The notes under the pieces are model-generated. The model was not told the DNA's origin. It saw only the letters and a program-made list of their open reading frames with translations, and ran no database searches. A stretch of DNA of 32,000 nucleotides from Candidatus Saccharimonadota bacterium (GTDB lineage: Bacteria; Bacteroidota; Bacteroidia; Cytophagales; Amoebophilaceae). The stretch covers positions 690,001-722,000 of the forward strand of contig NZ_OZ034918.1 in the NCBI RefSeq assembly GCF_964030745.1, read 5' to 3'. Shown here piece by piece: positions 26,881 through 28,263 of the stretch (position 1 is its first letter; every line of letters starts with the position of its first letter). The position numbers and the translations under genes were made by a program.

Positions 26881-28263
26881 ATGTTATCGTTTCAGACCAT
26901 TTGCTGGATTGGATTTGTTGCAAGTCGGGTTAGGAAACGTAGTCGTGGTACTTTTACTGCTTCGATAGATAAAATAGTTACTTTAAGCATTGCCATAGGT
27001 ACCGCGACTATATTAATCGCATTAATGGTAATGTTTGGATTTCAGAAAGAAATTACAAAAAAAATAACCGCTTTTGCTGGAGACTTTGAAATTACCAAAT
27101 ATAGCGGTATCCAGCATGCGTATGAGCCCCCACCTCTACAAGCTTCCCAAGTAGGTTGTCTGATTGCTGAATTACCTAATGCCATTGAAAAAGTAGCTGC
27201 ATTTACGCAAAAGCTTATGCTCATTAGACCGCTTTCAAGAGCTATTTATGATCAGCAATTTTTAGGAGAAGCGCAGTCGAGCATCGCAGCATACTCAGGT
27301 ATATTTGAGGAGCATAGAGCAGTCCCCAAATTGCCATTAGCAGCCAAGTTTCGAAAGAGGTCTACGCATACAAGTGTAGCGGTAGAGGGCATATTATGCA
27401 AGGGGATCGACCCTAGGGCAGCCCATATAACACTAGAAGATTATCTGATAGCAGGTAGGCTGCCTGATCTAACCAAGGAGACCGCTCAAAATGAGCTATG
27501 TATTAGCCATCACCTGGCCCAAAAATGTTCCATTCAGTTGAGCGATACAGTTGTGGTCCATACGGTCCATCCTACTGCACGCTACCGCAAGTTAAAAGTT
27601 GTAGGCATCTACTGCACCTATTTAAGCGATATAGATGAACATTTGGCTTTTTGTGATATGCGCCTGCTACAACGGTTGAATAATTGGTCTGTAGAAACCG
27701 TAAATGGATATACCATTTTTTTGAAAGATGGTATGAGGCCAACCAAACCATTACGCGACACTATTTTGCGTCTTATAGACCATGATTTACGCCTGATGAG
27801 CACCTCGCGTCAGTATGCTCGTTTTTATGATTGGTTGGCGATTATTGAGAAAAATACAACGATTTTTATTGTTTTTATACTATTGGTGGCAGGGTGCACA
27901 ATGGTGGCTACCGTTATGATTCAACTGATGGAGCGTAGTTATATGGTGGGTGTCTTAAAGGTTTTGGGTGCCCATAATGGACAAGTGAATGCCATCTTGC
28001 TCTATAATAGCCTACGTACTTTATCTTTGGGAATGCTATATGGCAATATAGTTGGGATCGGGTTGTGTCATTTACAAGATCACTATCGGTGTGTTACACT
28101 TGAACCAGCCCTTTACTACATGCGTTACGTGCCCATTTATAGCCATTGGCAAGTCATTTTATTTCCCAATCTATTGATATTTGGCAGCCTTTCTATTGGG
28201 TTATACTTTGCACTTAAAGTGTTAAAGCAAAAAAAACTTGTCGCTGCATTGCATGAGGGGTAA
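26881..28263 (+). CDS. LolC/LolE-type (MacB/FtsX family) ABC transporter permease carrying an in-frame repeat insertion
   Basis: 460 aa. The N-terminal TM is followed by a periplasmic domain. The C-terminal FtsX region has IFIVFILLVAGCTMVATVMIQLMERSYMVGVLKVLGAHNGQV plus two more TM segments. It is ~46 aa longer than expected because of the R1 copy at 27225-27364. Confidence 0.85.
   Translation: MLSFQTICWIGFVASRVRKRSRGTFTASIDKIVTLSIAIGTATILIALMVMFGFQKEITKKITAFAGDFEITKYSGIQHAYEPPPLQASQVGCLIAELPNAIEKVAAFTQKLMLIRPLSRAIYDQQFLGEAQSSIAAYSGIFEEHRAVPKLPLAAKFRKRSTHTSVAVEGILCKGIDPRAAHITLEDYLIAGRLPDLTKETAQNELCISHHLAQKCSIQLSDTVVVHTVHPTARYRKLKVVGIYCTYLSDIDEHLAFCDMRLLQRLNNWSVETVNGYTIFLKDGMRPTKPLRDTILRLIDHDLRLMSTSRQYARFYDWLAIIEKNTTIFIVFILLVAGCTMVATVMIQLMERSYMVGVLKVLGAHNGQVNAILLYNSLRTLSLGMLYGNIVGIGLCHLQDHYRCVTLEPALYYMRYVPIYSHWQVILFPNLLIFGSLSIGLYFALKVLKQKKLVAALHEG
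27225..27364 (+). mobile_element. R1 MITE-like element copy e, inserted in-frame in the LolE-like CDS
   Basis: tagaccgctttcaagagctatttatgatcagcaatttttaggagaagcgcagtcgagcatcgcagcatactcaggtatatttgaggagcatagagcagtccccaaattgccattagcagccaagtttcgaaagaggtcta aligns along its length with 2990-3134. It is bounded by TA on both sides. The element plus one TA is 138 nt (46 codons), translated as PLSRAIYDQQFLGEAQSSIAAYSGIFEEHRAVPKLPLAAKFRKRS. Confidence 0.88.

Follow-up and report, generated by a model that had tools for sequence, protein, structure and literature searches.

Rickettsia palindromic elements (RPEs) are textbook selfish DNA inside protein-coding genes. One family, RPE-1, was reportedly described in Rickettsia by Ogata et al. 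in 2000 and 2002, and the 'Wolbachia palindromic elements' (WPE) are said to have been described by Ogata, Suhre and Claverie in 2005. RPEs and their in-frame insertion are established in Rickettsia (PMC10969869, PMC4316617, PMC3767692), WPE-like in-frame inserts occur in addA, addB and priA (PMC4224334), and, according to one paper (PMC1779305), one RPE family is common to Rickettsia and Wolbachia (citing Ogata 2005) and RPEs are treated as a trait of Rickettsia or the Rickettsiales that dates from the ancestor of that lineage. A 32,000-nt stretch (the window; contig NZ_OZ034918.1, positions 690,001 to 722,000 of the forward strand) of the genome of the Philonthus spinipes Cardinium endosymbiont (Bacteroidota), which goes by the name icPhiSpin1 in a 2025 Cardinium review (PMC12342168), contains the same family. 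With a probability of roughly 85%, nucleotides 27225-27364 (+) of the window are a copy of a non-autonomous, imperfectly palindromic RPE-1-family element of about 146 nt, horizontally acquired and inserted in-frame in a lolE-like permease gene. The described range of RPE-1 being Rickettsia and the Rickettsiales, a Cardinium host lies outside it, and this is the novel aspect of the locus. As far as could be found, a known family is present in a new phylum, Bacteroidota, with a domain that automated annotation has already flagged and that is apparently undescribed in the literature: publications on Cardinium or Amoebophilus yielded no report of RPEs, RPE1 or palindromic elements, the 2025 review does not contain the word 'palindromic' (PMC12342168), and the only MITE (a miniature transposable element with inverted repeats) described in Cardinium is MITECca01 (PMC9769881).

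The host gene (26881-28263, +) encodes an intact LolE/LolC/LolF-like type VII ABC transporter permease of 460 aa with MacB_PCD and FtsX domains. Its open reading frame (ORF) matches the lolCE models with scores below the model cutoffs, its nearest relatives of solved structure are by sequence LolF and LolE, and a Foldseek search with its AlphaFold2 (AF2) model (predicted local distance difference test, pLDDT, 73.5) places LolE and LolC best, the top match being LolE of LolCDE (E 3e-19). The gene order proS-lolE-tsaD is common to the window and to the nearest relative, cOegib, and all residues that are invariant among the orthologues are kept in the 460-codon ORF. The intact gene is under purifying selection: outside the insert, the ratio of nonsynonymous to synonymous substitution rates (dN/dS) versus cOegib is 0.175, an average over both lineages since their split and not a measure of the period after the insertion, and the neighbouring genes have values of 0.155 (tsaD) and 0.076 (proS). 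The value of 0.175 argues that the gene is still functional.

Fifteen orthologues (397-430 aa), all from Cardinium and other Amoebophilaceae, lack exactly 47 residues of this protein, RPLSR...KRST at aa 115-161 (RPLSRAIYDQQFLGEAQSSIAAYSGIFEEHRAVPKLPLAAKFRKRST), which are encoded by a net insertion of 141 nt at 27226-27366 (+). The empty site in cOegib reads ...CTGATC|CATACT... and the filled site in the window ...CTCAT[TAGACC...GGTCTACG]CATACA, a gain of 141 nt net. The element proper is 140 nt long, with termini TAGACCGCTTTC...GAAAGAGGTCTA, and differs in length from the canonical 146-nt element by a 6-nt in-frame deletion. In the AF2 model the insert is a low-confidence, partly helical excursion (pLDDT 31-44) from the periplasmic domain, between the adjacent strands 102-117 and 169-176, and the extra 47 residues are presumably translated as part of the permease. 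The first-pass annotation, which had been made from the letters of the window, had proposed a palindromic element inside a LolE-like gene whose ORF nevertheless stays open, in a periplasmic part of the product; the open frame is intact over its 460 codons, and the insert does lie in the periplasmic domain of a LolE-like permease. Its length of 138 nt, or 46 codons, including one flanking TA, was mistaken, as the element has 140 nt and adds 141 nt net, or 47 codons; no TA or other specific duplication is upheld by an ambiguous target-site analysis. The lineage-specific insert that it anticipated, being absent from all 15 orthologues, is real, with a length of 47 rather than about 46 aa.

At the protein level, the insert alone has a single NCBIfam match, TIGR01045 (RPE1; 29.0 bits, E 7.4e-7, curated cutoff 30 bits), over profile positions 1-48 of 48, and in the whole permease the RPE1 match covers exactly the inserted residues. 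Frameshift-corrected translations of the intergenic copies in the window also match RPE1 only (24.1, 22.0 and 19.3 bits), and the cutoff is passed by the Cardinium proteins P0048 (36.2 bits), P0044 (35.3 bits) and P0046 (34.0 bits, from the same genome as the window), of which the NCBI pipeline names the last two 'palindromic element RPE1 domain-containing protein'. Elsewhere, RPE1 scores are 89.6 bits for a bona fide RPE-1 of Rickettsia asiatica, 44.0 and 43.9 bits for Wolbachia proteins and 26.4 bits for a Tisiphia protein. In the other direction, a profile made from Cardinium sequences only retrieves, out of 1.84 billion proteins, 115 with E<=1e-3; the matches with taxon names include RPE1-annotated proteins of R. 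asiatica, R. helvetica and two metagenome-assembled genomes (MAGs) of Rickettsia endosymbionts, one Candidatus Tisiphia protein, and AddB-like nuclease, RuvX, MurC and ankyrin proteins of Wolbachia, in which the module is internal. The peptide module is RPL..K....F.G......TAAY..V.E.....ST.KLPLE..F.KRS. A word-indexed protein search with the insert alignment gave seven matches, none of them from Rickettsiales, and Pfam had no match for the insert peptides.

At the nucleotide level, a three-part DNA pattern was found at 24 loci in a collection of one genome per species, to which the Philonthus spinipes Cardinium genome does not belong: 23 in Wolbachia and one in Cardinium sp. TP. All copies align across the whole element and have the same termini, TAGACCTCTTTC...GAAAGAGGTCTA, in Cardinium and Wolbachia. 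Mean identity over the element only is 79% between Cardinium copies, 76% (maximum 88%) between Cardinium and Wolbachia copies, and 83% between Wolbachia copies. Against the R. asiatica RPE-1 copy, the Cardinium copies are 57-66% identical over the whole element (mean 60%), again with the same termini and with alignment z-scores of 9.8-10.4 versus shuffled sequences. The element is evidently a homologue of RPE-1 and of its Wolbachia copies, not an independent invention of the Bacteroidota. The first-pass annotation was therefore right about the behaviour of the element, an RPE-like in-frame mobile palindrome, but too cautious in calling it only analogous, since profile and nucleotide comparisons make it homologous to RPE-1.

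The element has in common with RPE-1 a length of about 146 nt, an imperfectly palindromic sequence, the termini TAGACCTCTT...AAGAGGTCTA, one and the same open frame and the peptide module; further shared features are in-frame insertion into housekeeping genes and profile matches that are significant in both directions. It differs in its Bacteroidota host, in its nucleotide identity of about 60% to the bona fide Rickettsia copy, in a genic copy that falls just below the curated cutoff, and in that most copies in the window are intergenic and frameshifted. Its closest relatives are the WPE/RPE-1-type copies of Wolbachia (76-88% nucleotide identity), which lie in-frame in AddB, RuvX, MurC and ankyrin genes; these differ in belonging to another phylum, and the Wolbachia copies compared here may correspond to the named WPE. 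Intragenic repeats of the REP/ERIC/BOX type are likewise palindromes tolerated inside ORFs (PMC3733652, PMC10969869), but they have units of 20-40 bp or unrelated sequence, and no homology was found in Pfam or Rfam.

There is clear evidence for horizontal transfer, which is the only reasonable reading of the sharing between phyla, because two phyla cannot hold about 80% identity in a 146-nt repeat by vertical descent. Cardinium and Rickettsiales elements that were reciprocally monophyletic and had diverged as far as their genomes are already at odds with the 76-88% nucleotide identity. In a neighbour-joining tree rooted on Rickettsia, which carries no support values, the Cardinium copies form one cluster within the diversity of Wolbachia, and the transfer probably proceeded from a Rickettsiales symbiont to Cardinium. 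Hosts that carry both Cardinium and Wolbachia are well documented (PMC12342168). The plasmid collection (tblastn and blastn) contains no copy, nor do phage records and viral contigs, and no vector was found.

Within the window, a profile scan of the 32 kb found five copies: three full copies of 140-145 nt, one split by a nested element and one truncated. The first-pass annotation had aligned the genic copy over its full length, both inverted termini included, with intergenic copies at 2990-3134 (+) and 15071-15214 (-), and this alignment is confirmed, with a mean column identity of 84%. The outer termini of the window copies are TAGACC.../...GGTCTA, inverted; two conserved 17-mers occur three and four times in the window versus about 0.2 expected by chance. 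The copy at 2990-3134 (145 nt, strong hairpin) is inserted into another repeat, of which an empty counterpart lies 1.9 kb downstream (2945-3170 filled versus 4877-4957 empty), the paralogous empty site itself being 4917-4928 (+; CTCTAGTAAAAC). The copy at 15071-15214 (about 144-145 nt) is located downstream of dnaK and also has a strong hairpin.

The open frame is a property of the family. Of 29 near-full-length copies, 25 have a frame +1 free of stops; none is open in forward frame 0 or 2, and reverse frames are rarely open. Among the 23 Wolbachia copies, a sample drawn by DNA pattern and so free of protein-search bias, 18 are situated, without exception in frame +1, where the reading frame stays open for 170 codons or more, and the genic copy of the window and the copy at locus L003 lie likewise in long ORFs in frame +1. 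The net insertion equals the length of the element plus 1 nt in two independent comparisons of filled and empty sites (140 to 141 nt for the genic copy, 145 to 146 nt for the 2990 copy). A canonical net insertion would thus be 147 nt, or 49 codons, so that the downstream frame is kept in any phase, and read-through without stops is possible in only one phase and orientation of the element. The 2990 filled/empty pair is compatible with duplications between 1 and 5 nt long (G, AGT, CTAG or TAGTA), and the genic site has no clean duplication; target duplication is ambiguous because the termini mimic the target.

The intergenic copies do have stops in the equivalent frame, as the first-pass annotation had said, but its view that stops had been removed from the genic copy is incorrect: the intergenic stops result from 1-nt frameshifts and, in the 2990 copy, from a CAG>TAG change. 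A 1-nt loss at the apex of the hairpin (ACT-AGATG versus ACTCAGATG) is common to the intergenic and split copies of the window and the TP copy, the 2990 copy has a second indel in addition, and the genic copy keeps the ancestral apex. Because frame +1 is open in the consensus of the family and the genic copy retains this apex, the genic copy was not cleaned of stops; it is a descendant of the frame-intact subtype, and the intergenic copies are the broken ones.

The hairpin itself is conserved. Among 24 copies from four genera (alignment A6), 41 consensus pairs are paired in 96% of cells, and compensatory changes affect 17 of the 41 pairs versus 6.5 +/- 1.8 in shuffled alignments (none of the 500 has as many as 17) and 2-6 in slid controls. 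Two subtypes in the window are linked by compensatory changes, the genic arms being CTTTCGAAA/TTTCGAAAG as in Wolbachia and the intergenic arms CTTGCAAAA/TTTTGCAAG. Predicted DNA folds are strong for the 2990 copy (-38.1 kcal/mol, z -10.3) and the 15071 copy (-33.4 kcal/mol, z -7.8); for the genic copy the value is -14.5 kcal/mol (z -1.8), its hairpin having largely decayed. G.U cells in the hairpin amount to 74 and A.C cells to 18. In 28 of the 31 copies the more stable fold belongs to the sense strand, not to the antisense strand, and the genic copy of the window is among the three exceptions; as the copies are related, nominal p-values overstate this strand bias. These features hint at a strand-specific role of the hairpin as RNA or single-stranded DNA.

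Cardinium most likely gained the family from a Rickettsiales symbiont, the closest copies being those of Wolbachia. The element would then have multiplied within Cardinium, and after the split from cOegib one copy would have entered the part of the lolE-like gene that encodes the periplasmic domain. The gene would have survived owing to two properties of the element: the length-plus-1-nt rule (147 nt, 49 codons), which would keep the downstream frame, and a frame +1 (N-RPLSK...KLPLE..KRS) that would be read without stops. The insertion would have chanced on the right phase and orientation, between two beta-strands, leaving an open and presumably working gene whose product has an added loop, of about 49 aa then and 47 aa now. 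Selection at the protein level and drift may since have eroded the palindrome of the genic copy, and the intergenic hairpins would have been maintained by compensatory changes.

Several other explanations were weighed against an RPE-1-family copy acquired from outside Cardinium. Cardinium genomes are rich in insertion sequence (IS) elements and MITEs (PMC9769881), and the window holds another, unrelated MITE, which would suit a MITE that evolved independently in Cardinium and is like RPEs in behaviour only, analogous and not homologous to them. Such an origin is nevertheless very improbable: it is refuted by RPE1 being the sole profile match, by the reciprocal retrieval of Rickettsia RPE1 proteins and by the 76-88% nucleotide identity to Wolbachia copies, and it conflicts with the identical termini and the same open frame. 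It is barely conceivable that the 47 residues are ancestral protein sequence and the intergenic repeats dispersed fragments of the gene; the shared sequence fits this and nothing else does. It is refuted by the 15 orthologues that lack the segment and by the clean empty site, and it conflicts with the occurrence of the same 146-nt palindrome in unrelated genes of Wolbachia, Tisiphia and Rickettsia. An artefact of assembly, by which contaminating Wolbachia or Rickettsia reads were merged into a Cardinium contig, might be imagined for a genome from a whole-insect sequencing project (PMC12342168), but its likelihood is negligible: to either side of the genic copy the same ORF consists of Cardinium lolE sequence, the Cardinium copies have diagnostic substitutions of their own (for example CAGCAATTTTT and ACACCAAAATTG), and no fewer than four independent assemblies of Cardinium contain copies (Philonthus, D. 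farinae, TP and MAGs).

Two alternatives have somewhat more in their favour. The insertion could be real and the gene inactive or decaying, or the insert could be removed before or after translation, so that no insert-bearing permease exists; young pseudogenes are many in endosymbiont genomes, AF2 gives the insert no confident structure, and a strong sense-strand hairpin, as is typical of the family, could impede translation. This is quite unlikely given the intact ORF of 460 codons, the retained invariant residues, the dN/dS of 0.175 and the conserved synteny. Moreover, the Rfam scan of the window found nothing on the element, neither intron nor ribozyme, a frame-preserving 6-nt deletion together with a decayed hairpin fits continued selection on a translated sequence, and RPE-1-decorated proteins of Rickettsia are expressed, according to a review (PMC3733652, citing Abergel 2006). 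The second alternative, a minor yet appreciable one, concerns the route: the element may have moved from Cardinium to Wolbachia, or have come through a third carrier (phage, plasmid or a further symbiont). The topology of the neighbour-joining tree has no support values, few Cardinium copies were sampled, and co-infection by Cardinium and Wolbachia is common, making either direction feasible (PMC12342168); on the other side, the family goes back further and shows more diversity among Rickettsiales (Rickettsia, Tisiphia and several lineages of Wolbachia), and the absence of copies from the phage, viral and plasmid collections speaks against a third carrier.

Some observations weigh against a horizontally acquired RPE-1-family element in a working lolE-like gene, or against parts of that interpretation. 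The genic copy misses the RPE1 cutoff, by 1 bit alone and with 22.2 bits when the whole protein is scanned, and taxon names are available for only 30 of the 115 matches of the Cardinium profile. Sampling by exact pattern favours conserved copies, and the proposed direction of transfer depends on a tree built from about 146 nt, without support, and on the greater diversity of the family in Rickettsiales. No unambiguous target-site duplication is present at the genic site or at the 2990 copy, and no transposase or parental IS turned up in the window or in the loci examined. Finally, AF2 confidence for the insert is below 50, and the dN/dS value averages over a longer time than the insertion has existed.

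A broader proposal, which is tentative and somewhat doubtful as a whole, is that RPE-1 may be, rather than an inheritance of the Rickettsiales, a trans-phylum mobile coding palindrome that moves horizontally between unrelated symbionts of one arthropod cell (from Wolbachia or Rickettsia to Cardinium, or the reverse), that has recently been mobile in Cardinium, and whose hairpin acts or transposes via single-stranded RNA or DNA. Recent mobility in Cardinium is proposed because of the filled and empty paralogous site, the two subfamilies and the lineage-specific genic insertion; a single-stranded form is suggested by a hairpin that compensatory changes preserve and that systematically favours the sense strand. 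If the proposal is true, comparison of RPE-1-positive genomes of Cardinium and Wolbachia could reveal the mobilising enzyme. The presence of the family in a Bacteroidota symbiont, at about 80% nucleotide identity, already implies that an element of 146 nt without a gene of its own is able to cross phyla between co-resident endosymbionts, and it weakens the assumption of vertical inheritance for the sharing between Rickettsia and Wolbachia. Cardinium also provides a second, phylogenetically independent background in which to look for the mobilisation machinery, through the transposases common to RPE-1-positive Cardinium and Wolbachia, and for the way in which proteins tolerate inserts. Length outliers among Cardinium proteins, such as the LolE-like permease, are likewise explained.

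Among described repeats of Cardinium, MITECca01/02 of cOegib are similar to the element in being short, non-autonomous repeats with terminal inverted repeats that proliferate in a Cardinium genome (Halter et al. 2022, PMC9769881). MITECca01, of about 240 bp, is derived from IS982, associated with an AGMTTGTW motif beside the repeat, mostly intergenic or disruptive of other elements, and has no coding frame (PMC9769881). The element has terminal inverted repeats (terminus motif TAGACCTCTTTCGAAA) and a length below 300 bp, as in a classical IS-derived MITE, but its identity with MITECca01 was rejected on its size (146 nt) and different termini, and it has in addition a conserved open frame. A better candidate for that class is an unrelated MITE of 249 nt at 20604-20852, with terminal inverted repeats GTATCTGTTCA.../...TGAATAGATAC, which resembles the IS982-derived MITECca01 class, a class that according to Halter et al. 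(2022, PMC9769881) is confined to cOegib. It is flanked by an 8-bp target duplication, AGCTTGTC, at 20596-20603 and 20853-20860, and a second copy (8746-8993) has a clean 8-bp target duplication, TTTTTATC. Fragments related to it are found at 4593-4847 and 7053-7123, and the region from 2.5 to 9 kb of the window is a mosaic of several repeat families.

The 249-nt MITE interrupts the split copy of the palindromic element, which lies on the minus strand with its right-hand part (model positions 93-145) at about 20551-20603 and its middle part (model positions 41-102) at about 20851-20911. The stop codon TAG (20551-20553) of a 1191-aa ORF (16978-20553; sodium:solute symporter and HD domain) coincides with the terminal TAG of this copy, which may have redefined the 3' end of the ORF. 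The truncated copy (16707-16755, +; model positions 95-144) adjoins a group II intron D1-D4 fragment (16576-16693, -; RF01999, 40.9 bits), which suggests truncation of one mobile element by the other at 16576-16755.

Outside the window, P0048 (locus L003, 3348-3492, on the Cardinium-like ENA contig ERZ1030128) is a 494-aa ORF that connects an ArnT/PMT_2-like glycosyltransferase with NusB via an in-frame RPE1 module; the element may have joined two neighbouring genes into one, or the ORF may be simple read-through. In the same Cardinium genome as the window, the LptE protein P0071 (WP_342265399) has a degenerate module at aa 2-60, upstream of the lipobox LHGC, that is matched by the Cardinium profile (E 2.8e-10) and not by the RPE1 model, and that represents a further genic copy in this genome or else results from a mis-called start codon. 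The extended N-terminus of LptE and the PMT-NusB fusion ORF may share an RPE-1 cause. The match of P0079 (1162 aa, 10 matched stretches) was rejected as spurious, being due to low-complexity tandem repeats. RPE1-type modules accompany bacterial domains (MurC/MlaC, QueA, ankyrin) in the 'insect' proteins P0074, P0062, P0090 and P0150 ('Cinara cedri') and P0120 ('Pseudolycoriella hygida'), which probably come from symbiont contigs or transfers in the insect assemblies. Between the ORF 23815-24921 and proS, the window also contains an ordinary bacterial RNase P class A RNA (24930-25371, +; RF00010, 264.7 bits).

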